A DNA stretch of 17,422 bases, from the IMG/VR virus record IMGVR_UViG_2600255005_000002; one strand, given 5' to 3'. This DNA is from a virus. Taxonomy: Duplodnaviria; Heunggongvirae; Uroviricota; Caudoviricetes. A model generated the notes under the pieces. The model ran no database searches. It was not told the origin of the DNA and worked only from the letters and a program-made list of their open reading frames with translations. Positions 1 through 17,422 of the stretch are shown piece by piece (the stretch's first letter is position 1; each line of letters begins with the position of its first letter). The translations under genes were made by a program, and so were the position numbers.

Positions 1-1506
1 TTAGTAAGTACGAATCTTCGGCGGGAATGCCGGGCGCAGTTTCGGTTCCATGTTGACGCTACGTCGCGTCATGGATTCCGACTCTGGCAGATACAGGGAG
101 TGACACAGCCAGTTTTCATCATCACGCTCCGGGAAGTCGAAGCGGCTATGCGCGCCACGGCTTTCGGTACGGAAGTTGGCAGAAACAGCCGTTGCATACG
201 CCGTTTCCATCAGGTTATCCAGTTCCAGGCATTCAACGCGCTGGGTGTTGAACTCGCTGGAGGTGTCATCCAGACGGGCATTTTTCAGACGCTCGCGGAT
301 CACTTTCAACTGCTCAAGCCCTTTCGCCATCGCATCACCTTCACGGAAGACCGAGAAGTTATGCTGCATACATTCTTGCAGTGCTTTACGAATCGCCACC
401 GGATCTTCACCGTTACGGTTGTTGTTCCAGCGGTTCAGGCGCTCCAGAGAAGCTTCGACATCAGACTCGCTGGCATCGCGCAGTGCGCCCTGTTCGGCGA
501 TAGACTCTTGCAGATGCAGACCTGCCGCACGACCAAAGACCACCAGGTCCAGCAGCGAGTTGCCGCCAAGACGGTTAGCGCCGTGTACCGATACGCAAGC
601 AATTTCACCCACCGCGAACAGGCCAGGAATCACCACATCTTCGCCCTTCTCGTTCACGGTCAGCGCCTGCCCGGTCACTTTGGTCGGAATACCGCCCATC
701 ATGTAGTGACAGGTTGGGATAACCGGAATCGGCTCTTTCACCGGATCGACGTGAGCGAAGGTACGGGAGAGTTCAAGAATGCCCGGCAGACGGGATTCGA
801 GAACTTCTTTACCCAGGTGGTCGAGTTTCAGTTTTGCGTGTGGTCCCCACGGGCCATCACAGCCACGACCTTCACGAATTTCGATCATGATGGAACGCGC
901 CACCACATCACGCCCCGCCAGGTCTTTGGCGTTCGGCGCATAACGCTCCATAAAGCGTTCGCCATGTTTGTTCAGCAGATAACCGCCTTCACCACGGCAA
1001 CCCTCGGTGACCAGTACGCCCGCACCGGCAATACCCGTCGGGTGGAACTGCCACATTTCCATATCCTGCACCGGTACGCCTGCACGGATAGCCATGCCGA
1101 CGCCGTCGCCGGTGTTAATGTGGGCGTTGGTGGTGGACTGATAAATACGCCCTGCTCCGCCAGTCGCCAGCACGGTAGCGCGGGCTTTGAAATAAACCAC
1201 TTCACCGGTTTCGATGCACAGTGCGGTACAACCGACCACTGCGCCATCCTGGTTTTTCACCAGATCCAGCGCATACCACTCGGAGAAAATGGTGGTGTGG
1301 TTTTTCAGGTTCTGCTGATAAAGGGTGTGCAACAGTGCGTGACCGGTACGGTCAGCCGCTGCCGCTGTACGTGCCGCCTGCTCGCCGCCGAAGTTTTTCG
1401 ACTGACCGCCAAACGGACGTTGATAGATACGACCATCATCAAGGCGCGAGAACGGCAGTCCCATGTGTTCCAGTTCCAGAATCGCTTCCGGCCCGGTTTT
1501 ACACAA
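1..1506 (-). CDS. sdhA: Succinate dehydrogenase flavoprotein subunit, 5'-truncated fragment (C-terminal ~500 of 588 residues); reading frame broken at junction near 1505
   Basis: Minus-strand ORF translation ends ...[12 protein letters not shown] and contains the flavoprotein motifs ([21 protein letters not shown]) recognised as E. coli SdhA. The track start at 1506 is TTG at a position where SdhA has an internal Met (..YMCKTGPEA..), so the N-terminal ~87 residues are absent. Stop codon is at 1-3. Confidence 0.9.
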
Positions 1507-1512
1507 GAGTTA

Positions 1513-1911
1513 ATGGAATTGGCAAGTGAATTTTCTGGCATGCTTAAGTCGTCAGGTGTTCGGTCAGCGTTCTTTGTTGAAATGCTGATGCACGGCGGAC
1601 TTATGGCAACAATGAGACGTGTAATGGAAGACCAGAGAAAAGAACCTCCTCAGGTATACGTTTTGTCATCGAAGAAAACTGGGCTAACCAAAATTGGGTA
1701 TTCATCCAACATTCCACAACGCATCAAATCGCTTGGCAACTCTGGACCAGACTGCTTGAAGCTTGAGTGCCTGATCCCTGGTGGAAGAGAAACTGAAAAC
1801 ATGCTTCATCGCAAATTTGCCGCAAAGAGAAAGCACGGTGAATGGTTCGCCCTGTCCAAGGATGACATTGAGGGATTGAAATCTGTAGCGATTACTTCTG
1901 ATGGCTATTAA
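1513..1911 (+). CDS. T5orf172-type (GIY-YIG superfamily-like) small domain protein; start uncertain (ATG at 1513, 1603 or 1624)
   Basis: C-terminal 132 codons of track ORF 100..1911, the only part not antisense to sdhA. Sequence PQVYVLSSKKTGLTKIGYSSNIPQRIKSL...ENMLHRKFAAKRKHGEWFALS shows GIY(VYV)-x11-YIG(KIG) spacing, conserved Arg and Glu, and the terminal GEWF motif typical of T5orf172 domains. GGCGGA lies 3 nt before the ATG at 1603; only weak AAGAG precedes 1513. Confidence 0.6.
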   Translation: MELASEFSGMLKSSGVRSAFFVEMLMHGGLMATMRRVMEDQRKEPPQVYVLSSKKTGLTKIGYSSNIPQRIKSLGNSGPDCLKLECLIPGGRETENMLHRKFAAKRKHGEWFALSKDDIEGLKSVAITSDGY

Positions 1912-2425
1912 TGCTTGTTTAGAGCAATTTTCATAACAACTCTTCATTACAAAGCCCATTTACGGGTGGGCTTGATAATGAAACCGGAATTTATTCTGGG
2001 CCACCAGTTAACGGCAGTACCACGAAACAACCCAAGCCAGTAAGTGGAGAAATAACACCGGCAGCCACTGAAAGATGAACCTCCTGCCTTATGGCAAAAA
2101 AGATTCTTTGTGGTGGCGGACTGATGGAAAGACATCGGTTATTGCAGAGGCCATTCAATGAGTGGTCTCGACAATGGCTTATACCCTACACGGGATAACT
2201 TAACTGATATCCCTTTTAACGGATAAAGGTATTCAAGCCTGACACATCATGCGCTGTATCGTCGCTGTACTCTTGCATTAATTATGACTGTAGCCTGACG
2301 GGGAACTCCTTCTGCGCGAGTGTGCGGGAATAATCAAAAACGATGCACACCGGGGTTACCGGGTACACATATTTCATCATGCCAGCGAGTCCGGTTCTGG
2401 CGCGGAAGAAACCGGACGTTATGAT

Positions 2426-2836
2426 TTAGTGCGGAAATATTTGTGTAGTGTTCTGAATGTTCTCAGTAAATAGTAATGAATTATCAAAGGTATAGTAATA
2501 CCTTTTGTTTTCGTGGATATTTGTAACCCACCGAAAAACTCCTGCTTTAGCAAGGTTTCTTCTGTATTCCTGAAATGTGATCTCTCTGGATTTCAGCTTA
2601 TTAGAGGTCGTTTCTATAAGATGCCTATCCTTTGAAAATTTGACAGACACAATGTTTTTTAGGCCCTTTAATAACACTGTATTATCATTTTTTAATACAA
2701 TATGAACATTCTCTGTGGCTAAATAGTAAATGTAATGTGAGACATTGTGACGTTTTAGCTCAGAATAAAACCATTGATAGTTTAAATCGTTTCGAACTTT
2801 ATCAAATATTTGTTTAAAAATGACTACCTGATCCAT
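2426..2836 (-). CDS. Lambdoid right-arm accessory protein, DUF1398-like (YdfO/YbcV-family homolog); function unknown
   Basis: Minus-strand ORF (track 2426..2851, 141 aa). The internal ATG at 2834-2836 ([11 protein letters not shown]...) has a GGAAGG Shine-Dalgarno 7 nt upstream, whereas the first ATG at 2851 has none. AT-rich; resembles from memory the ORF in the last ~1 kb of lambda and its cryptic-prophage homologs. Confidence 0.6.
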
Positions 2837-2893
2837 AGATAAACCTTCCATGTGATATGAGGGGGCGTAGTCTGCACGATTATCTAAATTGCT

Positions 2894-3127
2894 TCAATCT
2901 GGTCTGACCTGTTTTCTGAGCAATTCAGTAATGTCACTCTTTTCTTTGTTTGCTTCAGGAGAAACTCTTTTTTCTGAGCACAGTCTCCGGCGGCAGGCTT
3001 CAATGACCCAGGCTGAGAAATTCCCGGACCCTTTTTGATCAAGAGCGATGTTAATTTGTTCAATCATTTGGTTAGGAAAGCGGATGTTGCGGGTTGTTGT
3101 TCTGCGGGTTCTGTTCTTCGTTGACAT
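2894..3127 (-). CDS. Small basic ribbon-helix-helix-like protein, DUF3950-like (YnfO/YlcI-family homolog of the lambda right-end ORF)
   Basis: 77-aa minus-strand ORF MSTKNRTRRTTTRNIRFPNQMIEQINIALDQKGSGNFSAWVIEACRRRL... The N-terminal ~50 residues match from memory the small ORF encoded just left of cos in lambda; the C-terminus diverges. Confidence 0.55.
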   Translation of the reverse strand: MSTKNRTRRTTTRNIRFPNQMIEQINIALDQKGSGNFSAWVIEACRRRLCSEKRVSPEANKEKSDITELLRKQVRPD

Positions 3128-3289
3128 GAGGTTGCCCTGTATTCAGTGTCGCTGATTTGTATTGTCTGAAGTTGTTTTTACGTTAAGTTGATGCAGATCA
3201 ATTAATACGATACCTGCGTCATAATTGATTATTTGACGTGGTTTGATGGCGTAGATGCACGTTGTGACATGTAGATGATAATTATTATC

Positions 3290-3510
3290 ATTTTGCGGGT
3301 CCTTTCCGGCGATCCGACAGGTTACGGGGCGGCGACCTCGCGGGTTTTCGCTATTTATGAAAATTTTCCGGTTTAAGGCGTTTCCGTTCTTCTTCGTCGT
3401 AACTTAATGTTTTTATTTAAAATACCCCCTGAAAAGAAAGGAAACGACAGGTGCTGAAAACGAACTTTTGGGCCTCTGTCGTTTCCTTTCTCTGTTTTTG
3501 TCCGTGGAAT
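3290..3510 (+). promoter_or_regulatory. cos: Lambda-type cos site (cosQ - cosN - cosB with Nu1/IHF binding elements), present as a joined circular-form junction
   Basis: Sequence ...GATCCGACAGGTTACG|GGGCGGCGACCTCGCGGGTTTTCGCTATTTATGAAAATTTTCCGG... reproduces the lambda right-end/left-end junction. It lies immediately upstream of Nu1 and includes the 14-bp inverted repeat AAAGGAAACGACAG (3437-3450) / CTGTCGTTTCCTTT (3476-3489). Confidence 0.85.
3327..3338 (+). promoter_or_regulatory. cosN: cosN 12-nt cohesive-end sequence GGGCGGCGACCT (terminase nicking site)
   Basis: Exact 12-mer GGGCGGCGACCT at 3327-3338, flanked by the characteristic GTTACG and CGCGGG. Confidence 0.85.
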
Positions 3511-3515
3511 GAACA

Positions 3516-4034
3516 ATGGAAGTCAACAAAAAGCAGCTGGCTGACATTTTCGGTGCGAGCATCCGTACCATTCAGAACTGGCAGGAGCAGGGAATGCCCG
3601 TTCTGCGAGGTGGCGGGAAGGGTAATGAGGTGCTTTATGACTCTGCCGCCGTCTAAAATGGTATGCCGAAAGGGATGCTGAAATTGAGAACGAAAAGCTG
3701 CGCCGGGAGGTTGAAGAACTGCGGCAGGCCAGCGAGACAGATCTGCAGCCAGGGACTATTGAGTACGAACGCCATCGACTTACGCGTGCGCAGGCCGACG
3801 CACAGGAGCTGAAAAATGCCAGAGACTCCGCTGAAGTGGTGGAAACCGCATTCTGTACTTTCGTGCTGTCGCGGATCGCAGGTGAAATTGCCAGTATTCT
3901 CGACGGGATCCCCCTGTCGGTGCAGCGGCGTTTTCCGGAACTGGAAAACCGACATGTTGATTTCCTGAAACGGGATATCATCAAAGCCATGAACAAAGCA
4001 GCCGCGCTGGATGAACTGATACCGGGGTTGCTGA

Positions 4035-4060
<26 letters not shown>
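3516..4060 (+). pseudogene. Nu1: Terminase small subunit Nu1, disrupted by a -1 frameshift at about 3651-3656 (premature TAA at 3654)
   Basis: ATG at 3516 gives MEVNKKQLADIFGASIRTIQNWQEQGMPVLRGGGKGNEVLYDSAAV then stop. The remainder (KWYAERDAEIENEKL...SEYIEQSG, ending at 4060) continues in another frame. Window has GTCTAAAATGG where lambda (from memory) has GTCATAAAATGG. Confidence 0.85.
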
Positions 4061-7740
<3,680 letters not shown>

Positions 7741-7760
<20 letters not shown>

Positions 7761-9056
7761 TCTCCCGCATATTGCCAGTATGGCCTTTAATGAGCCGCTT
7801 ATGCGCGGGTTTTCTTTTGTGCGCTTGCAGGCCAGCTTGGGATCAGCCGCCTGACGGATGCGGTGTCCGGCGACAGCCTGACTGCCCAGGAGGCACTCGC
7901 GACGCTGGCATTATCCGGTGATGATGACGGACCACGACAGGCCCGCAGTTATCAGGTCATGAACGGCATCGCCGTGCTGCCGGTGTCCGGCACGCTGGTC
8001 AGCCGGACGCGGGCGCTGCAGCCGTATTCGGGGATGACCGGTTACAACGGCATTATCGCCCGTCTGCAACAGGCTGCCAGCGACCCGATGGTGGACGGCA
8101 TTCTGCTCGATATGGACACGCCAGGCGGAATGGTGGCGGGAGCATTTGACTGCGCTGACATCATTGCCCGTGTGCGTGACATAAAACCGGTATGGGCGCT
8201 GGCCAACGATATGAACTGCAGTGCAGGTCAGCTGCTTGCCAGTGCCGCCTCCCGGCGTCTGGTCACGCAGACCGCCCGGACAGGCTCCATCGGCGTCATG
8301 ATGGCTCACAGTAATTACGGTGCTGCGCTGGAGAAACAGGGTGTGGAAATCACGCTGATTTACAGCGGCAGCCATAAGGTGGATGGCAACCCCTACAGCC
8401 ATCTTCCGGATGACGTCCGGGAGACACTGCAGTCCCGGATGGATGCAACCCGCCGGATGTTTGCGCAGAAGGTGTCGGCATATACCGGCCTGTCTGTGCA
8501 GGCTGTGCTGGATACAGAGGCTGCAGTGTACAGCGGTCAGGAGGCCATTGATGCCGGACTGGCTGATGAACTTGTCAACAGCACCGATGCGATCACCGTT
8601 ATGCGTGATGCACTGGATGCACGTAAATCCCGTCTCTCAGGAGGGCGAATGACCAAAGAGACTCAATCAACAACTGTTTCAGCCACCGCTTCGCAGGCTG
8701 ACGTTACTGACGTGGTGCCAGCTACGGAGGGCGAAAACGCCAGCGCGGCGCAGCCGGACGTGAACGCGCAGATCACCGCAGCGGTTGCGGCAGAAAACAG
8801 CCGCATTATGGGGATCCTCAACTGTGAGGAGGCTCACGGACGCGAAGAACAGGCGCGCGTTCTGGCAGAAACCCCCGGAATGACCGTGGAAACGGCCCGC
8901 CGCATTCTGGCCGCAGCACCACAGAGTGCACAGGCGCGCAGTGACACTGCGCTGGATCGTCTGATGCAGGGTGCACCGGCACCGCTGGCTGCAGGTAACC
9001 TGGCATCTGATACCAATAAAGAATTACTTAATACACCTGAAGCTTTACCGGTATAA
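7741..9056 (+). pseudogene. C: Prohead protease/scaffold gpC, N-terminus disrupted by a ~16-bp deletion at about 7799-7800; downstream frame open
   Basis: GTG at 7741 gives MTAELRNLPHIASMAFNEPLM then diverges, with a stop at 7852-7854. The C sequence resumes in frame 0 (ARVFFCALAGQLGIS..SGDSLTAQEALATLALSGDDDGPRQ...). Window has GAGCCGCTTATGCGCGGG where lambda (from memory) has GAGCCGCTGATGCTTGAACCCGCCTATGCGCGGG. Confidence 0.75.
8439..9056 (+). CDS. Nu3: Scaffolding protein Nu3 (in-frame internal start within C), apparently intact
   Basis: ATG at 8439 (MDATRRMFAQKVSAYTGLSVQ...) is in the downstream C frame, which is uninterrupted to the stop at 9054-9056. C-terminus (..AAGNLASDTNKELLNTPEALPV) differs from lambda. 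Confidence 0.5.
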   Translation: MDATRRMFAQKVSAYTGLSVQAVLDTEAAVYSGQEAIDAGLADELVNSTDAITVMRDALDARKSRLSGGRMTKETQSTTVSATASQADVTDVVPATEGENASAAQPDVNAQITAAVAAENSRIMGILNCEEAHGREEQARVLAETPGMTVETARRILAAAPQSAQARSDTALDRLMQGAPAPLAAGNLASDTNKELLNTPEALPV

Positions 9057-9065
9057 GAGGCAGTT

Positions 9066-9398
9066 ATGGCGTCAAAAGAAGAGTTTAACCATTACCAGCC
9101 GCTGGGTAACAGTGATCCGGCTCATACAGCAATTGCGCCTGGCGGATTGAGTGCGAAAACGCCTGCAATGACCCCGCTGATGCTGGATGGCACTACCCGT
9201 AAGCTGGTTGTGTGGGATGGCACCACCGACGGTGCAGCCGTTGGCATTCTGGCGGTTGCTGCTGACCAGACCAGCACCACACTGACGTTCTACAAGTCCG
9301 GCTCGTTCCGTTATGAGGATGTGCTCTGGCCGGAGGCTGCCAGCGACGAGACTAAAAAACGGACCGCGTTTGCCGGAACGGCAATCAGCATCGTTTAA
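9066..9398 (+). CDS. D: Head decoration protein gpD (110 aa), divergent allele
   Basis: 110-aa [44 protein letters not shown]...FAGTAISIV; same length as lambda gpD with scattered substitutions; ATG preceded by AAGAGG. Confidence 0.9.
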
Positions 9399-9415
9399 TC
9401 TTCCCCTTCATCAAC

Positions 9416-9440
9416 AAAGGCCGCCTGTGCGGCTTTTTTT
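9416..9440 (+). terminator. Rho-independent terminator-like hairpin between D and E (GCCGC-CTGT-GCGGC followed by T7)
   Basis: AAAGGCCGCCTGTGCGGCTTTTTTT: 5-bp GC stem, 4-nt loop, seven T residues. Probably a partial terminator or mRNA-stability element, since E must be co-transcribed. Confidence 0.4.
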
Positions 9441-9453
9441 ATGGAAATAATTT

Positions 9454-10479
9454 ATGTCTGTATATACAACTGCAGAATTACTGGCATCGACCCAGCATCA
9501 CTTTAAGTTCGATCCGCTGTTTCTGCGTCTCTTTTTCCGTGAAACCTATCCTTTCACCACGGAAAAAGTCTATCTCTCACAAATTCCGGGACTGGTAAAC
9601 ATGGCGCTGTACGTTTCGCCGATTGTTTCCGGTGAGGTTATCCGATCCCGTGGCGGCTCCACCTCTGAATTTACGCCGGGTTATGTCAAGCCGAAGCATG
9701 AGGTGAATCCGCAGATGACCCTGCGTCGCCTGCCGGATGAAGATCCGCAGAACCTGGCTGACCCGGCTTACCGTCGTCGCCGTATTATTCGGCAGAATAT
9801 GCTGGATGAAAATCTGGCGATTGCCCAGGTCGAAGAGATGCAGGCAGTTTCTGCCGTGCTTAAGGGCAAATACACCATGACCGGTGAAGCCTTCGATCCG
9901 GTTGAGGTGGATATGGGCCGCAGTGCGGCGAATAACATCACGCAGTCCGGCGGCACGGAGTGGAGCAAGCGTGACAAGTCCACGTATGACCCGACCGACG
10001 ATATCGAAGCCTACGCGCTGAACGCCAGCGGTGTGGTGAATATCATCGTGTTTGATCCGAAAGGCTGGGCGCTGTTCCGTTCCTTCAAGGCCGTCAAGGA
10101 GAAGCTGGATACCCGTCGCGGCTCTCATTCCGAGCTGGAGACAGCGGTAAAAGACCTGGGCAAAGCGGTGTCTTATAAGGGAATGTATGGCGATGTGGCC
10201 ATCGTCGTGTATTCCGGACAGTACGTGGAAAACGGCGTCAAAAAGAACTTCCTGCCGGACAACACGATGGTGCTGGGGAACACTCAGGCACGCGGTCTGC
10301 GCACCTATGGTTGCATTCAGGATGCGGACGCACAGCGCGAAGGCATTAACGCCTCTGCCCGTTACCCGAAAAACTGGGTGACCACCGGCGACCCGGCGCG
10401 TGAGTTCACCATGATTCAGTCAGCACCGCTGATGCTGCTGGCTGACCCTGATGAGTTCGTGTCCGTACAACTGGCGTAA
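9454..10479 (+). CDS. E: Major capsid protein gpE (341 aa)
   Basis: 341-aa ORF MSVYTTAELLASTQHHFKFDPLFLRLFFRETYPFTTEKVYLSQIPGLVNMALYVSPIVSGE...; same length as lambda gpE; N-terminal residues differ from lambda (from memory). Confidence 0.95.
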   Translation: MSVYTTAELLASTQHHFKFDPLFLRLFFRETYPFTTEKVYLSQIPGLVNMALYVSPIVSGEVIRSRGGSTSEFTPGYVKPKHEVNPQMTLRRLPDEDPQNLADPAYRRRRIIRQNMLDENLAIAQVEEMQAVSAVLKGKYTMTGEAFDPVEVDMGRSAANNITQSGGTEWSKRDKSTYDPTDDIEAYALNASGVVNIIVFDPKGWALFRSFKAVKEKLDTRRGSHSELETAVKDLGKAVSYKGMYGDVAIVVYSGQYVENGVKKNFLPDNTMVLGNTQARGLRTYGCIQDADAQREGINASARYPKNWVTTGDPAREFTMIQSAPLMLLADPDEFVSVQLA

Positions 10480-10481
10480 TC

Positions 10482-10510
10482 ATGGCCCTTCGGGGCCATT
10501 TTCTCTCTGT
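10482..10510 (+). terminator. Hairpin downstream of E (ATGGCCC-TTCG-GGGCCAT followed by TTTCTCTCTG)
   Basis: Perfect 7-bp inverted repeat with a 4-nt loop at 10482-10499 followed by a pyrimidine/T-rich run, directly after the E stop codon and before the FI ribosome-binding site. Confidence 0.35.
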
Positions 10511-10520
10511 GGAGGAGTCC

Positions 10521-10916
10521 ATGACGAAAGATGAACTGATTGCCCGTCTCCGCTCGCTGGGTGAACAACTGAACCGTGATATCAGCCTGACGGGGACGAA
10601 AGAAGAACTGGCGCTCCGTGTGGCAGAGCTGGAAGAAGAGCTTGATGACACGGGCGACACTGCCGGTCAGGATACCCCTCTCAGCCCGGAAAATGTGCTG
10701 ACCGGACATGAAAATGAGGTTGTATCAGCGCAGCCGGATACCGTGACTGATACGGCTGATCTGGTCACGGTTGTGGCACTGGTGACGCTGCATACTGATG
10801 CACTTCACGCCACGCGGGATGAGGCTGTGGCATTTGTGCTGCCGGGAACGGCGTTTCGTGTCTCTGCCGGTGTGGCAGCCGAAATGACAGAGCGCGGCCT
10901 GGCCAGAATGCAATAA
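10521..10916 (+). CDS. FI: DNA-packaging / head assembly protein gpFI (131 aa)
   Basis: ATG at 10521 preceded by GGAGGAG; MTKDELIARLRSLGEQLNRD...ERGLARMQ. One codon shorter than lambda FI, with a substitution cluster in the middle. Confidence 0.85.
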   Translation: MTKDELIARLRSLGEQLNRDISLTGTKEELALRVAELEEELDDTGDTAGQDTPLSPENVLTGHENEVVSAQPDTVTDTADLVTVVALVTLHTDALHATRDEAVAFVLPGTAFRVSAGVAAEMTERGLARMQ

Positions 10917-10927
10917 CGGGAGGCGCT

Positions 10928-11281
10928 GTGGCTGATTTCGATAACCTGTTCGATGCTGCCATTGCCCGCGCCGATGAAACGATACGCGGGTACATGGGAA
11001 CGTCAGCCACCATGACATCCGGTGAGCAGTCCGGCGCAGTAATACGTGGTGTTTTTGATGACCCTGAAAATATCAGCTATGCCGGACAGGGCGTGCGCGT
11101 TGAAGGCTCCAGCCCGTCCCTGTTTGTCCGGACTGATGAGGTGCGGCAGCTGCGGCGTGGAGACACGCTGACCATCGGTGAGGAAAATTTCTGGGTAGAT
11201 CGGGTTTCGCCGGATGATGGCGGAAGTTGTCATCTCTGGCTTGGACGGGGCGTACCGCCTGCCGTTAACCGTCGCCGCTGA
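10928..11281 (+). CDS. FII: Head-tail connector protein gpFII (117 aa, GTG start)
   Basis: MADFDNLFDAAIARADETIRGYMGTSATMTSGEQSGAVIRGVFDDPENISYAGQGVRVEG...; GTG start preceded by GGGAGG. Confidence 0.85.
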   Translation: MADFDNLFDAAIARADETIRGYMGTSATMTSGEQSGAVIRGVFDDPENISYAGQGVRVEGSSPSLFVRTDEVRQLRRGDTLTIGEENFWVDRVSPDDGGSCHLWLGRGVPPAVNRRR

Positions 11282-11292
11282 AAGGGGGATGT

Positions 11293-11871
11293 ATGGCCAT
11301 AAAAGGTCTTGAGCAGGCCGTTGAAAACCTCAGCCGTATCAGCAAAACGGCGGTGCCTGGTGCCGCCGCAATGGCCATTAACCGCGTTGCTTCATCCGCG
11401 ATATCGCAGTCTGCGTCACAGGTTGCCCGTGAGACAAAGGTACGCCGGAAACTGGTAAAGGAAAGGGCCAGGCTGAAAAGAGCCACGGTCAAAAATCCGC
11501 AGGCCAGAATCAAAGTTAACCGGGGGGATTTGCCCGTAATCAGGCTGGGTAATGCGCGGGTTGTCCTGTCCCGCCGCAGGCGTCGTAAAAAGGGGCAGCG
11601 TTCATCCCTGAAAGGTGGCGGCAGCGTGCTTGTGGTGGGTAACCGTCGTATTCCCGGCGCGTTTATTCAGCAACTGAAAAATGGCCGGTGGCATGTTATG
11701 CAGCGTGTGGCCGGGAAAAACCGTTACCCCATTGATGTGGTGAAAATCCCGATGGCGGTGCCGCTGACCACGGCGTTTAAACAGAATATTGAACGGATAC
11801 GGCGTGAACGTCTTCCGAAAGAGCTGGGCTATGCGCTGCAGCATCAACTGAGAATGGTAATAAAGCGATGA
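11293..11871 (+). CDS. Z: Tail completion protein gpZ (192 aa)
   Basis: MAIKGLEQAVENLSRISKTAVPGAAAMAINRVASSAISQSASQVARETKVRRKL...; ATG preceded by AAGGGGGAT; overlaps U start (ATGA). Confidence 0.9.
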   Translation: MAIKGLEQAVENLSRISKTAVPGAAAMAINRVASSAISQSASQVARETKVRRKLVKERARLKRATVKNPQARIKVNRGDLPVIRLGNARVVLSRRRRRKKGQRSSLKGGGSVLVVGNRRIPGAFIQQLKNGRWHVMQRVAGKNRYPIDVVKIPMAVPLTTAFKQNIERIRRERLPKELGYALQHQLRMVIKR

Positions 11872-12263
11872 AACATACTGAACTCCGTGCAGCCGTACTG
11901 GATGCACTGGAGAAGCATGACACCGGGGCGACGCTTTTTGATGGTCGCCCCGCTGTTTTTGATGAGGAAGATTTTCCGGCAATTGCCGTTTATCTCACCG
12001 GCGCTGAATACACGGGCGAAGAGCTGGACAGCGATACCTGGCAGGCGGAGCTGCATATTGAAGTTTTCCTGCCTGCTCAGGTGCCGGATTCAGAGCTGGA
12101 TTCGTGGATGGAGTCCCGGATTTATCCGGTGATGAGCGATATCCCGGCACTGTCAGATTTGATCACCAGTATGGTGGCCAGTGGCTATGACTACCGGCGC
12201 GACGATGATGCGGGCCTGTGGAGTTCAGCCGATCTGACTTATGTCATTACCTATGAAATGTGA
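11868..12263 (+). CDS. U: Tail terminator protein gpU (131 aa)
   Basis: [56 protein letters not shown]... Confidence 0.9.
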
Positions 12264-12270
12264 GGACGAT

Positions 12271-13011
12271 ATGCCTGTACCAAATCCAGCAATACCGGTG
12301 AAAGGTGCCGGAACCACCCTGTGGGTTTATAACGGGAGCGGCGACCCTTATGCAAACCCGCTTTCAGACGTTGACTGGTCGCGTCTGGCTAAAGTTAAAG
12401 ACCTGACGCCCGGCGAACTGACCGCTGAGTCCTATGACGACAGCTATCTCGATGATGAAGATGCAGACTGGACTGCGACCGGACAGGGGCAGAAATCTGC
12501 CGGAGATACCAGCTTCACGCTGGCGTGGATGCCCGGAGAGCAGGGGCAGCAGGCGCTGCTGGCGTGGTTTAATGAAGGCGATACCCGTGCCTATAAAATC
12601 CGCTTCCCGAACGGCACGGTCGATGTGTTCCGTGGCTGGGTCAGCAGTATCGGTAAGGCGGTGACGGCGAAGGAAGTGATCACCCGCACGGTGAAAGTCA
12701 CCAATGTGGGACGTCCGTCGATGGCAGAAGATCGCAGCACGGTAACAGCGGCAACCGGCATGACCGTGACGCCTGCCAGCACCTCGGTGGTGAAAGGGCA
12801 GAGCACCACGCTGACCGTGGCATTCCAGCCGGAAGGCGCAACCGACAAGAGCTTCCGTGCGGTGTCTGCGGATAAAACAAAAGCCACCGTGTCGGTCAGT
12901 GGTATGACCATCACCGTGAAAGGTGTTGCTGCAGGCAAGGTCAACATTCTGGTCGTATCCGGTAATGGTGAACTTGCTGCGGTTGCAGAAATCAACGTCA
13001 CCGCCAGTTAA
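12271..13011 (+). CDS. V: Major tail tube protein gpV (246 aa) with C-terminal Ig-like domain
   Basis: ATG at 12271 ([30 protein letters not shown]...) preceded by GAGGACG. The track ORF begins 10 codons upstream at an ATG lacking a ribosome-binding site. C-terminal ~90 residues are Thr/Val-rich and Ig-like. Confidence 0.9.
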
Positions 13012-13026
13012 TCCGGAGAGTCAGCG

Positions 13027-13449
13027 ATGTTCCTGAAAACCGAATCATTTGAACATAACGGTGTGACCGTCACGCTTTCTGAACTGTCAGCCCTGCAGCG
13101 TATTGAGCATCTCGCCCTGATGAAACGACAGGCAGAACAGGCGGAGTCAGACAGCAACCGGAAGTTTACTGTGGAAGACGCCATCAGAACCGGCGCTTTT
13201 GTGGTGGCGATGTCCCTGTGGCATAACCATCCGCAGAAGACAAAGCTGCCTTCCATGAATGAAGCCGTTAAACAGATTGAGCAGGAAGTGCTTACCACCT
13301 GGCCCACGGAGGCAATTTCTCATGCTGAAAACGTGGTGTACCGGCTGTCCGGTATGTATGAGTTTGTGGTGAATGATGCTCCTGAACAGGCAGATGACGC
13401 CGGGCCTGCAGAGCCTGTTTCTGCGGGAAAGTGTTCGACGGTGAGCTGA
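13027..13449 (+). CDS. G: Tail assembly chaperone gpG (140 aa)
   Basis: MFLKTESFEHNGVTVTLSELSALQRIEHLALMKRQAEQAESDSNRKF...PVSAGKCSTVS; ATG preceded by GGAGAG. Confidence 0.9.
   Translation: MFLKTESFEHNGVTVTLSELSALQRIEHLALMKRQAEQAESDSNRKFTVEDAIRTGAFVVAMSLWHNHPQKTKLPSMNEAVKQIEQEVLTTWPTEAISHAENVVYRLSGMYEFVVNDAPEQADDAGPAEPVSAGKCSTVS
13425..13431 (+). promoter_or_regulatory. Programmed -1 ribosomal frameshift slippery heptamer G GGA AAG producing the G-T fusion
   Basis: GGGAAAG at 13425-13431 near the 3' end of G, arranged X XXY YYZ in the G frame. The -1 frame continues directly into the T reading frame (FDGELSFALKLAREMG...). Confidence 0.7.
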
Positions 13450-13865
13450 GTTTTGCCCTGAAACTGGCGCGTGAGATGGGGCGACCCGACTGGCGTGCCA
13501 TGCTTGCCGGGATGTCATCCACGGAGTATGCCGACTGGCACCGCTTTTACAGTACCCATTATTTTCATGATGTTCTGCTGGATATGCACTTTTCCGGGCT
13601 GACATATACCGTGCTCAGCCTGTTTTTCAGCGATCCGGATATGCATCCGCTGGATTTCAGTCTGCTTAACCGGCGTGAGGCTGACGAAGAGCCTGAAGAT
13701 GATGTGCTGATGCAGAAAGCGGTAGGGCTTGCCGGAGGCGTTCGTTTTGGCCCGGACGGGAAAGAAGTTATCCCCGCTTCCCCGGATGTAGCGGACATGA
13801 CGGAGGATGACGTAATGCTGATGACAGTATCAGAAGGGATCGCAGGAGGAGTCCGGTATGGCTGA
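13431..13865 (+). CDS. T: gpT portion of the tail assembly chaperone, expressed as the G-T fusion by -1 frameshifting (fusion spans 13027-13865)
   Basis: Frame-0 ORF of 144 codons (..FDGELSFALKLAREMGRPDWRAMLAGMSSTEYADWHRFYSTHYFHDVLL...), with no independent ATG or ribosome-binding site; begins at the slippery site and ends at the TGA overlapping the H start. Confidence 0.8.
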   Translation: MFDGELSFALKLAREMGRPDWRAMLAGMSSTEYADWHRFYSTHYFHDVLLDMHFSGLTYTVLSLFFSDPDMHPLDFSLLNRREADEEPEDDVLMQKAVGLAGGVRFGPDGKEVIPASPDVADMTEDDVMLMTVSEGIAGGVRYG

Positions 13866-16419
13866 ACCGGTAGGCGATCTGGTCGTTGATTTAAGTCTGG
13901 ATGCGGCCAGATTTGACGAGCAGATGGCCAGAGTCAGGCGTCATTTTTCCGGTACGGAAAGTGATGCGAAAAAAACAGCGGCAGTCGTTGAACAGTCGAT
14001 GAACCGGCAGGCGCTGGCTGCACAGAAAGCGGGGATTTCCGTCGGGCAGTATAAAGCCGCCATGCGTATGCTGCCTGCACAGTTCACCGACGTGGCCACG
14101 CAGCTTGCAGGCGGGCAAAGTCCGTGGCTGATCCTGCTGCAACAGGGGGGTCAGGTGAAGGACTCCTTCGGCGGGATGATCCCCATGTTCCGGGGGCTTG
14201 CCGGTGCGATCACCCTGCCGATGGTCGGGGCCACCTCGCTGGCGGTGGCGACCGGTGCGCTGGCGTATGCCTGGTATCAGGGCAACTCAACCCTGTCCGA
14301 TTTCAACAAAACGCTGGTTCTTTCCGGCAATCAGTCGGGGCTGACGGCAGATCGTATGCTGGTCCTGTCCAGAGCCGGGCAGGCGGCAGGGCTGACGTTT
14401 AACCAGACCAGCGAGTCACTCAGCGCACTGGTTAAGGCGGGGGTAAGCGGTGAGGCTCAGATTGCGTCCATCAGCCAGAGTGTGGCGCGTTTCTCTTCTG
14501 CATCCGGCGTGGAGGTGGACAAGGTCGCTGAAGCCTTCGGGAAGCTGACCACTGACCCGACGTCGGGGCTGACGGCGATGGCGCGCCAGTTCCATAACGT
14601 GACGGCGGAGCAGATTGCGTATGTTGCTCAGTTGCAGCGTTCCGGCGATGAAGCCGGGGCATTGCAGGCGGCGAACGAGGCCGCAACGAAAGGGTTTGAT
14701 GACCAGACCCGACGCCTGAAAGAGAACATGGGCACGCTGGAAACCTGGGCAGACAGGACAGCACGGGCATTCAAATCCATGTGGGATGCGGTGCTGGATA
14801 TTGGTCGTCCTGATACCGCTCAGGAGATGCTGATTAAGGCAGAGGCTGCGTTTAAGAAAGCGGACGACATCTGGAATCTGCGCAAGGATGATTATTTTGT
14901 TAACGATGAAGCGCGGGCGCGTTACTGGGATGACCGTGAAAAGGCCCGTCTTGCGCTTAAAGCCGCCCGAAAGAAGGCTGAACAGCAGAGTCAACAGGAC
15001 AAAAATGCGCAGCAGCAGAGCGATACCGAAGCGTCACGGCTGAAATATACCGAAGAGGCGCAGAAGGCTTACGAACGGCTGCAGACACCGCTGGAGAAAT
15101 ATACCGCCCGTCAGGAAGAACTGAACAAGGCACTGAAAGACGGGAAAATCCTGCAGGCAGATTACAACACGCTGATGGCGGCGGCGAAAAAGGATTATGA
15201 AGCGACGCTGAAAAAGCCGAAACAGTCCGGCGTGAAGGTGTCTGCGGGCGATCGTCAGGAAGACAGTGCTCATGCTGCCCTGCTGACGCTTCAGGCAGAA
15301 CTCCGGACGCTGGAGAAGCATGCCGGAGCGAATGAGAAAATCAGCCAGCAGCGCCGGGATTTGTGGAAGGCGGAAAATCAGTTCGCGGTACTGGAGGAGG
15401 CGGCACAACGTCGCCAGCTATCCGCACAGGAGAAATCCCTGCTGGCGCATAAAGATGAGACGCTGGAGTACAAACGCCAGCTGGCTGTACTTGGCGATAA
15501 GGTCACGTATCAGGAGCACCTGAATGCGCTGGCGCAGCAGGCGGATAAGTTCGCACAGCAACAACGGGCAAAACGGGCAGCCATTGAGGCGAAAAACCGG
15601 GGGCTTACTGACCGGCAGGCAGCGCGGGAAGCCACAGAACAGCGCCTGAAGGAACAGTATGGCGATAATTCGCTGGCGCTGAATAACGTCATGTCAGAGC
15701 AGAAAAAGACCTGGGCGGCTGAAGACCAGCTTCGCGGGAGCTGGATGGCAGGCCTCAAGTCCGGCTGGAGTGAGTGGGAAGAGAGCGCCACGGACAGTAT
15801 GTCGCAGGTTAAAAGTGCAGCCACGCAGACCTTTGATGGTATTGCGCAGAATATGGCGGCGATGCTGACCGGCAGTGAACAGAACTGGCGCAGCTTCACC
15901 CGCTCCGTGCTGTCCATGATGACAGAAATTCTGCTTAAGCAGGCAATGGTGGGGATTGTCGGGAGTATCGGCAGCGCCATTGGCGGGGCTGTTGGTGGCG
16001 GCGCATCAGCGTCAGGCGGTACAGCCATTCAGGCAGCTGCGGCGAAATTCCATTTTGCGACCGGAGGATTTACGGGAACCGGCGGCAAATATGAGCCAGC
16101 GGGGATTGTTCACCGTGGTGAATTTGTCTTCACTAAGGAGGCAACCAGCCGGATTGGCGTGGGGAATCTCTACCGGCTGATGCGCGGCTATGCCACCGGC
16201 GGTTATGTCGGTACACCGGGCAGCATGGCGGACAGCCGCTCGCAGGCGTCCGGGAAGTTTGAGCAGAATAACCATGTGGTGATTAACAACGACGGCACGA
16301 ACGGTCAGATAGGGCCACAGGCGCTGAAGGCGGTTTATGACGTAGCCCGTAAGGCGGCAATGGATGTTGTGACCGGGCAGATGCGCGATGGTGGTCTGTT
16401 CTCCGGAGGTGGACGATGA
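13858..16419 (+). CDS. H: Tail tape measure protein gpH (853 aa)
   Basis: 853-aa ORF MAEPVGDLVVDLSLDAARFDEQMARVRRHFSGTESDAKKTAAVVEQS..., with a long central coiled-coil-like Ala/Gln/Lys/Glu-rich region and C-terminal Gly-rich segment; same length as lambda gpH. Confidence 0.95.
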   Translation: MAEPVGDLVVDLSLDAARFDEQMARVRRHFSGTESDAKKTAAVVEQSMNRQALAAQKAGISVGQYKAAMRMLPAQFTDVATQLAGGQSPWLILLQQGGQVKDSFGGMIPMFRGLAGAITLPMVGATSLAVATGALAYAWYQGNSTLSDFNKTLVLSGNQSGLTADRMLVLSRAGQAAGLTFNQTSESLSALVKAGVSGEAQIASISQSVARFSSASGVEVDKVAEAFGKLTTDPTSGLTAMARQFHNVTAEQIAYVAQLQRSGDEAGALQAANEAATKGFDDQTRRLKENMGTLETWADRTARAFKSMWDAVLDIGRPDTAQEMLIKAEAAFKKADDIWNLRKDDYFVNDEARARYWDDREKARLALKAARKKAEQQSQQDKNAQQQSDTEASRLKYTEEAQKAYERLQTPLEKYTARQEELNKALKDGKILQADYNTLMAAAKKDYEATLKKPKQSGVKVSAGDRQEDSAHAALLTLQAELRTLEKHAGANEKISQQRRDLWKAENQFAVLEEAAQRRQLSAQEKSLLAHKDETLEYKRQLAVLGDKVTYQEHLNALAQQADKFAQQQRAKRAAIEAKNRGLTDRQAAREATEQRLKEQYGDNSLALNNVMSEQKKTWAAEDQLRGSWMAGLKSGWSEWEESATDSMSQVKSAATQTFDGIAQNMAAMLTGSEQNWRSFTRSVLSMMTEILLKQAMVGIVGSIGSAIGGAVGGGASASGGTAIQAAAAKFHFATGGFTGTGGKYEPAGIVHRGEFVFTKEATSRIGVGNLYRLMRGYATGGYVGTPGSMADSRSQASGKFEQNNHVVINNDGTNGQIGPQALKAVYDVARKAAMDVVTGQMRDGGLFSGGGR

Positions 16420-16745
16420 AAACCTTCCGCTGGAAAGTGAAACCCGGTATGGATGTGGCTTCGGCCCCTTCCGTAAGAAAGGTGCGCTTTGGTGATGGCT
16501 ATTCTCAGCGAGCGCCTGCCGGGCTGAATGCCGACCTGAAAACGTACAGCGTGACGCTTTCTGTTCCCCGTTGGGAGGCCACGGCGCTTGAGTCGTTTCT
16601 GGCTGAGCACGGGGGCTGGAAATCCTTTCTGTGGACGCCGCCTTATGAGTGGCGGCAGATAAAGGTGACCTGCGCAAAATGGTCGTCGCGGGTCAGTATG
16701 CTGCGTGTTGAGTTCAGCGCAGAGTTTGAACAGGTGGTGAACTGA
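16416..16745 (+). CDS. M: Minor tail protein gpM (109 aa)
   Basis: MKTFRWKVKPGMDVASAPSVRKVRFGDGYSQRAPAGLNADLKTYSVTLSV...; ATGA overlap with the H stop. Confidence 0.9.
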   Translation: MKTFRWKVKPGMDVASAPSVRKVRFGDGYSQRAPAGLNADLKTYSVTLSVPRWEATALESFLAEHGGWKSFLWTPPYEWRQIKVTCAKWSSRVSMLRVEFSAEFEQVVN

Positions 16746-17422
16746 TGCAGGATATCCGGCAGGAAACACTGAATGAATGCACCCGTGCGGAGCAGTCGGC
16801 CAGCGTGGTGCTCTGGGAAATCGATCTGACAGAGGTCGGTGGAGAACGTTATTTTTTCTGTAATGAGCAGAACGAAAAAGGTGAGCCGGTCACCTGGCAG
16901 GGGCGACAGTATCAGCCGTATCCCATTCAGGGGAGCGGTTTTGAACTGAATGGCAAAGGCACCAGTACGCGCCCCACGCTGACGGTCTCTAACCTGCACG
17001 GCATGGTCACCGGTATGGCGGAAGACCTGCAGAGTCTGGTCGGCGGAACGGTGGTCCGGCGTAAGGTTTACGCCCGTTTTCTGGATGCGGTGAACTTCGT
17101 TAACGGAAACAGCGACGCCGATCCGGAGCAGGAGGTGATCAGCCGCTGGCGCATCGAACAGTGCAGCGAACTGAGCGCGGTGAGTGCCTCTTTTGTACTG
17201 TCCACGCCGACTGAAACGGATGGTGCTGTTTTTCCGGGGCGCATCATGCTGGCTAATACCTGCACCTGGACCTATCGCGGTGATGAGTGCGGTTATCACG
17301 GTCCGGCTGCAAATTGTATTCTGCCGGAGCAGAAAGCAATTAACGTTTGGAGAACTGCGGACGACGACGTGCTTTACGCAGACCGACTTTCTTACGTTCA
17401 ACCTGACGAGCGTCACGAGTAA
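16745..17422 (+). CDS. L: Minor tail protein gpL, 3'-truncated: L-derived sequence ends at about 17297-17310, after which the open frame reads through antisense rpsI sequence to the window end
   Basis: MQDIRQETLNECTRAEQSASVVLWEIDLTEVGGERYFFCNEQNEKGEPVTWQGRQYQPYPIQGSGFELNGKG...CTWTYRGDECGY matches lambda gpL (232 aa in lambda). The following residues (HGPAANCILPEQKAINVWRTADDDV...) are not L; no stop codon within the window. Confidence 0.75.
   Translation: MQDIRQETLNECTRAEQSASVVLWEIDLTEVGGERYFFCNEQNEKGEPVTWQGRQYQPYPIQGSGFELNGKGTSTRPTLTVSNLHGMVTGMAEDLQSLVGGTVVRRKVYARFLDAVNFVNGNSDADPEQEVISRWRIEQCSELSAVSASFVLSTPTETDGAVFPGRIMLANTCTWTYRGDECGYHGPAANCILPEQKAINVWRTADDDVLYADRLSYVQPDERHE
17340..17422 (-). 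CDS. rpsI: 30S ribosomal protein S9, 3' end only (last 26 codons plus stop); gene continues beyond the window
   Basis: Minus-strand translation of 17343-17420 is TRDARQVERKKVGLRKARRRPQFSKR followed by TAA (17340-17342), identical to the C-terminus of E. coli S9 as remembered. Confidence 0.8.
   Translation of the reverse strand, partial: TRDARQVERKKVGLRKARRRPQFSKR

Follow-up and report, generated by a model that had tools for sequence, protein, structure and literature searches.

Is the small terminase gene Nu1 of this lambda-like prophage broken in the bacterium that carries it, or only in the sequence that was deposited? The window, by which we mean the whole stretch of 17,422 nucleotides that was analysed, comes from Escherichia ruysiae TW11588 (assembly GCA_000208585.2, contig AEMF01000001.1) and was identical to the locus fetched from that record over an overlap of 13,656 nt. 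According to two papers, AEMF denotes strain TW11588, a soil isolate of cryptic clade IV that is now assigned to Escherichia ruysiae. The record is a 2011 draft that was submitted as a single contig of 4.46 Mb. A block of lambda-like late genes occupies positions 1506 to 17308 on the plus strand of the window (15.8 kb), starting within a GIY-YIG/T5orf172 gene and ending within tail gene L, and Nu1 is one of three genes in this block whose reading frame is interrupted.

Nu1 opens at the ATG at 3516 and is read on the plus strand for 46 codons (MEVNKKQLADIFGASIRTIQNWQEQGMPVLRGGGKGNEVLYDSAAV) up to a TAA at 3654–3656, which closes the first open reading frame (3516–3656). Codons 48 to 181 (134 codons, K48 to G181; KWYAERDAEIENEKL...EYIEQSG) are open in the −1 frame of the same strand, from 3656 to the stop at 4058–4060. 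Translation bore out the preliminary description in this respect, since it had placed the premature stop after 46 codons and carried the remaining 134 codons in another frame to the normal stop at 4060. Alignment with lambda, with the prophage of NZ_CP053787.1, the top match in E. coli, and with 8 further prophages revealed in every case a one-base gap after window position 3653, where relatives read GTC ATA AAA TGG (or GTT ATA AAA or GTT ATA AGA) and the window reads GTC TAA AAT GG. The site appears in relatives as GTCATAAAATGG, GTTATAAAATGG or GTTATAAGATGG, the first of these being the intact 181-codon allele, and in the window as the deletion allele GTCTAAAATGG. The base that was lost is the isolated A between C and T in codon 47 (ATA), absent between C3653 and T3654 (plus strand), because this is the sole single-base deletion that turns the reading of the relatives into that of the window. 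The A4 run at 3655–3658 is equally long in the window and in the relatives, indicating that the lesion adjoins a short run and is not a homopolymer miscount. The frameshift sets the window apart from thousands of homologues by one discrete change, and raises no question of a chance pattern. Taken at face value, the deposited sequence specifies a null Nu1 in which the N-terminal piece is severed from the C-terminal part. The earlier claim that a single-base deletion in an A-run inactivates Nu1 therefore holds for the deletion and for the null allele but not for the A-run, whose length is unaltered. For the same reason the homopolymer argument that had been offered for a possible sequencing error does not hold in the form given; the caveat itself was right, and the context described below makes an error likelier.

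The preliminary description had also expected the DNA-binding N-terminal domain of Nu1 to be made alone. The 46-aa open reading frame matched positions 1–46 of the Pfam profile PF07471 (Phage_Nu1; E = 3e-25), and the repaired 181-aa protein matched positions 1–164 of its 164 positions (E = 3.9e-101). The winged helix-turn-helix DNA-binding domain is incomplete, as the frame stops at residue 46. Solved constructs of Nu1-type DNA-binding domains comprise 54–56 residues (7LWR, 7LXS, 7LW0), 68 residues (1J9I) or 98 residues (6HN7), all of them longer than the window's product. In a single-sequence AlphaFold (AF2) model of low confidence (mean pLDDT 58), helices span residues 5–12, 16–24 and 43–74, suggesting that the 46-residue product would lack nearly all of helix 3 and, for this reason, is unlikely to form a folded DNA-binding domain. 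We consequently do not retain the expectation of a domain made alone. The N-terminal domain and the C-terminal part are out of frame with each other, codons 48–181 being shifted into the −1 frame with respect to the start codon; according to published work on lambda, the C-terminal part of gpNu1 serves in self-assembly and in the binding of gpA.

The surroundings of the gene are those of lambda. The cos region extends from 3327 to 3515 (plus strand), with window position 3327 corresponding to lambda nucleotide 1 (GGGCGGCGACCT), and upstream of 3516, inspection by eye against lambda showed R-element-like sequences of cosB, the Nu1 binding sites. Nu1 is placed between cosB and gene A, and the start of A at 4035 overlaps the Nu1 stop, in a lambda-like manner. 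Gene A, coding for the large terminase subunit gpA (4035–5960, plus strand), is intact at 641 aa, and its product is identical to an allele for which the assembly collection lists 3,587 blocks. The window gene thus shares with that of lambda gpNu1 (NP_040580; PDB 1J9I, 6HN7) its location directly after cosB and its overlap with the start of A, and with the A restored it would encode a protein of 181 aa that differs at 2 residues only (A75T, L132I). It differs from the lambda gene in that the frame is broken past codon 46, where most of helix 3 and everything downstream are gone. A separate difference from lambda lies in the non-coding cosB region at 3464–3465, where a 1-nt length difference, accompanied by several substitutions, falls between the R2-like and R1-like sequences (GCGAGGCTTTTTGG versus ACGAACTTTTGGG). 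The lambda-type length at this position recurs in two other fetched loci (L053 and L055), and the closest relative found (L050, see below) shows no gap relative to the window there, so this difference looks like natural variation.

How private is the Nu1 lesion? A 73-nt query spanning the gap matched 5,511 places, distributed over 3,972 of the 5,426 complete E. coli genomes, and no match reached 99% identity; the best matches all stood at 98.6%, the value that corresponds to the one-base gap. The gap was not found in 89 phage records, among the matches listed, which span 702 bases against the window's 701. A gap-spanning 40-mer had no exact match in GTDB species representatives, in IMG/VR or in JGI metagenomes, and Nu1 was intact, not split, in all 19 of the further loci fetched in which the site is covered. 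Exact look-ups of the open reading frame products that are specific to the lesions returned only the NCBI record or unrelated alleles, with no TW11588 lesion reproduced independently, and an antisense 100-aa open reading frame that is present only with the deletion allele matched the source record alone.

The 46-aa partial Nu1 product itself was present in 422 listed blocks of assemblies in the index, and it was considered as a sign of the same deletion elsewhere. Among the contigs examined, the source record aside, this was rejected because the contigs end, or meet N, at ...GCCGCCGT. The wobble base of Val46 (codon at window 3651–3653) is polymorphic, GTC or GTT, among lambdoid prophages, and contigs break there since short-read assemblies branch at a C/T polymorphism between co-resident lambdoid prophages. 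In protein databases, this recurrent branch point gives the false impression of a Nu1 fragment of 46 aa. The Nu1 gap of the window lies one base past this common assembly break point.

The remainder of the phage block was compared with its closest relative found, the intact prophage L050 (GCA_036293225.1). Over window positions 1506–17309 the differences between the two amount to 3 mismatches plus exactly 3 gaps. Every gap breaks a gene: Nu1 (1 nt), the portal gene (1 nt) and the protease gene C (16 nt). With its A restored, the nucleotide sequence of Nu1 is identical to that of L050. Apart from these 3 mismatches over ~15.8 kb, L050 and the near-identical copies in GCA_012294585.1 and ERZ28658521 differ from the window in that their Nu1 (181 aa), portal (533 aa) and C (443 aa) are intact, and in that they run on into lysis genes on the left and into K, I and J on the right, whereas the window block ends abruptly. 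Measured against 7 relatives, the phage block carries only 2 private substitutions, at 11481 and 14319. The intact proteins are exact copies of common alleles, namely H and DUF1398, like gpA, of alleles in 153 and 184 blocks, respectively, and W, D, E, FI, FII, Z, U, V, G and M of proteins on 122 to more than 1000 other contigs, with 0 private amino-acid changes in ~3,200 intact codons. After repair, Nu1, portal and C likewise match, residue for residue, proteins present on at least 1000, 482 and 104 contigs, respectively. A single indel thus separates each broken phage gene from a common allele that works, and the genes display no other sign of decay. In the tail region, the heptamer GGGAAAG is intact at 13425–13431, within the overlap of the tail chaperone genes G (13027–13449) and T (13431–13865); it is the lambda G/GT −1 frameshift site.

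Portal gene B (6160–7760, plus strand) is split into open reading frames of 135 aa (6160–6567) and 398 aa (6564–7760) by a private 1-nt deletion after 6408 (GGGTCTTTTTT to GGGCTTTTTT), and the pattern of this deletion had no match in a scan of GTDB representatives or IMG/VR. The Logan contig SRR32022218 was considered as independent support for the portal frameshift and set aside, as its alignment revealed another allele (GGG to GG, not the loss of a T). Other contigs with a split portal were rejected as support as well: they carry different 1-nt deletions, and in them Nu1 is intact where the contig reaches it and C is intact. Such contigs represent independent events or errors that were retrieved by the design of the search, and lend no support to the TW11588 lesion. 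The T6 run and its neighbours (window 6409–6415; loci L015 and L037–L041) bear independent 1-nt deletions in several unrelated assemblies: four have T6 shortened to T5, one has GGG reduced to GG, and one has T4 shortened to T3 further downstream. These deletions reflect either a hot spot of mutation or recurrent sequencing error.

The head protease/scaffold gene C, with nested Nu3 (7741–9056, plus strand), carries the third lesion. A private 16-nt stretch was lost between two CCGCT direct repeats, of which one copy remains at 7795–7799. The frame that opens at GTG 7741 stops at 7852–7854 and the remainder of the gene is open from GTG 7863, such that protease C is cut after 37 codons and the nested Nu3 frame downstream is unaffected. 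Contig ERR13369248 (L019), considered as a near-identical relative lacking the 16-nt deletion, proved uninformative, being identical to the common prophage. Of its 4409 nt, 4,350 nt represent the common prophage, and its ends are capped by inverted 26-nt copies (CCAGACGGTTTAAATGAGCCGGTTAC) that resemble an adaptor, a vector or a hairpin produced by assembly.

Both ends of the phage block are abrupt. On the left, the 3′ part of sdhA (1–1505, minus strand; 1505 nt, the C-terminal 501 codons) lacks its first 87 codons and abuts phage DNA at the junction 1505/1506 with no homology; in an exact look-up, the truncated SdhA product was found in no assembly but that of TW11588. On the right, phage DNA halts at 17308 within L, after 225 of 232 codons, and the truncated L gene is directly followed by the start of the sspA–rpsI intergenic region and the 3′ end of rpsI (17309–17422, minus strand). 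Past the phage, the gene order is the sspA–rpsI spacer, rpsI, rplM, zapE, zapG, degQ, degS and mdh. On the E. coli K-12 map, sdhA and rpsI lie at ~0.75 and 3.38 Mb and are not neighbours. The junctions of the block reflect either a joining of contigs in which no gap of N's was left, a misassembly, or a large rearrangement that is peculiar to TW11588.

The chromosomal flanks carry one lesion of the same kind. About 2 kb to the right of the window (about position 15223 of fetched locus L046), a private insertion of 2 nt within A-rich sequence divides zapE into open reading frames of 222 and 159 aa. Once repaired, ZapE exactly matches a protein that occurs on 97 contigs, one of which bears the name of E. 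coli H605. The genes sucABCD, sdhB, rpsI, rplM, zapG, degQ, degS, mdh and argR have the lengths of their E. coli counterparts. In total, ~13 kb of flanking chromosomal coding sequence contained one frameshift only, that of zapE, indicating that the assembly is not riddled with errors, and ~35 kb of the TW11588 record contained four private frame-breaking indels.

From this pattern we infer a technical cause, and consider that the Nu1 gap, which is confined to the 2011 draft of TW11588, probably arose as an error of assembly or of sequencing. Six lines of evidence favor this reading: the gap is private when judged against E. coli genomes, phage records, 40-mer scans and fetched loci; the private differences are rich in indels and poor in substitutions, the usual signature of consensus error; the genes are otherwise pristine; the same signature of private indels recurs outside the phage, in zapE; the block has abrupt mid-gene ends between non-syntenic pieces; and the gap itself lies beside a common assembly branch point. 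The last two, like the excess of indels, are usual marks of consensus error. The lesion is thus confined to one assembly, and other anomalies lie within the same record. Apart from the frame-breaking indels, which make up almost all of its differences from its closest relatives, the phage block is a pristine copy of a widespread and intact lambda-like prophage, and its position between non-neighbouring chromosomal segments looks like the result of gapless joining of contigs or of misassembly.

Several observations count against an error, and they are the ones that support a real mutation, by which TW11588 would have lost Nu1 function very recently in an unselected prophage copy. Homopolymer length changes are the classic error of pyrosequencing; the two 1-nt deletions are not changes of this type, and the 16-nt deletion is no simple homopolymer miscount either. 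Deletion between direct repeats is a typical footprint of replication slippage in vivo, and the 16-nt deletion in C, which lies between perfect 5-nt repeats (CCGCT), does not look like an obvious sequencing error. The lesion is present in the deposited sequence together with two other inactivating lesions in neighbouring head genes, and three lesions within 4.2 kb of head genes would look like a decaying prophage. Decay of prophage genes is also common, head genes being a typical site of it, and for the portal gene independent 1-nt deletions occur in that same region in other assemblies. We nevertheless consider a genuine deletion to be the less probable explanation, though one that keeps a substantial share of our confidence. 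Substitutions dominate neutral decay in bacteria, whereas the block holds 3 frame-breaking deletions against only 2 private substitutions in 15.8 kb; at least 3 indels among 5 events would arise with p ~0.01 by our own calculation, which takes indels, on our own assumption, to make up about one tenth of neutral changes. Two private substitutions and proteins that are exact common alleles, with not one private amino-acid change in the intact codons, are not the pattern of neutral decay in a genuine pseudogene. The conserved zapE gene nearby has the same kind of private indel, and the TW11588 lesions were reproduced in no independent data set. Finally, knocking out a packaging gene has no obvious benefit for the host: since its loss gives no protection from induction, selection does not explain the excess of indels.

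A further possibility is that the three lesions are real and non-random, and mark an early conversion into a head-less, tail-only element that yields an F-type tailocin-like particle. In keeping with this, packaging and capsid genes (Nu1, portal and C) are lost and all tail genes in the block are intact; we found no positive support for it, and regard both the conversion and such an interpretation of the gene pattern as very improbable. Bearing on the same question, the block stops inside L, with K, I and J not adjacent in the record, and no lesion affects gpA, W, D, E, FI or FII.

The idea that the frame change is bypassed, through programmed ribosomal frameshifting, transcriptional slippage or a functional two-piece Nu1, could draw on a downstream frame that is wholly open to the normal stop and on the use of −1 frameshifting by lambda-like phages elsewhere (the GGGAAAG site in the G/T overlap), but we dismiss it as barely conceivable because 3516–3656 contains 0 in-frame X XXY YYZ heptamers and the nearby run is only A4, because the downstream frame offers no ATG, GTG or TTG before GTG 3836 and its candidate starts lack a visible Shine–Dalgarno sequence, and because the split occurs in no relative (5,511 E. 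coli places, the listed phage matches and 19 loci), where a recoding signal would be conserved.

The preferred reading, an error in the draft, and its main rival, a recent mutation, lead to a lesion of a well-known kind either way, namely a draft frameshift error or a private pseudogene mutation. Frameshifts of defective prophages and frameshift errors of draft assemblies have in common a single private indel that truncates a conserved phage gene; the window case fits both classes, and nothing in the sequence alone tells them apart. Whichever applies, AEMF01000001.1 calls for caution in pseudogene, prophage-integrity and synteny calls, given its private indels and its non-syntenic mid-gene joins. 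If the base is truly absent, the prophage would have no functional small terminase, and hence neither cos recognition nor packaging; if all the lesions are real, with Nu1, portal and C broken, this copy would be unable to package DNA or to make filled heads. The biological weight of the finding is small, as it would represent, at worst, a mistake in the consensus of a draft from 2011 and, at best, one more dead prophage gene in one strain.
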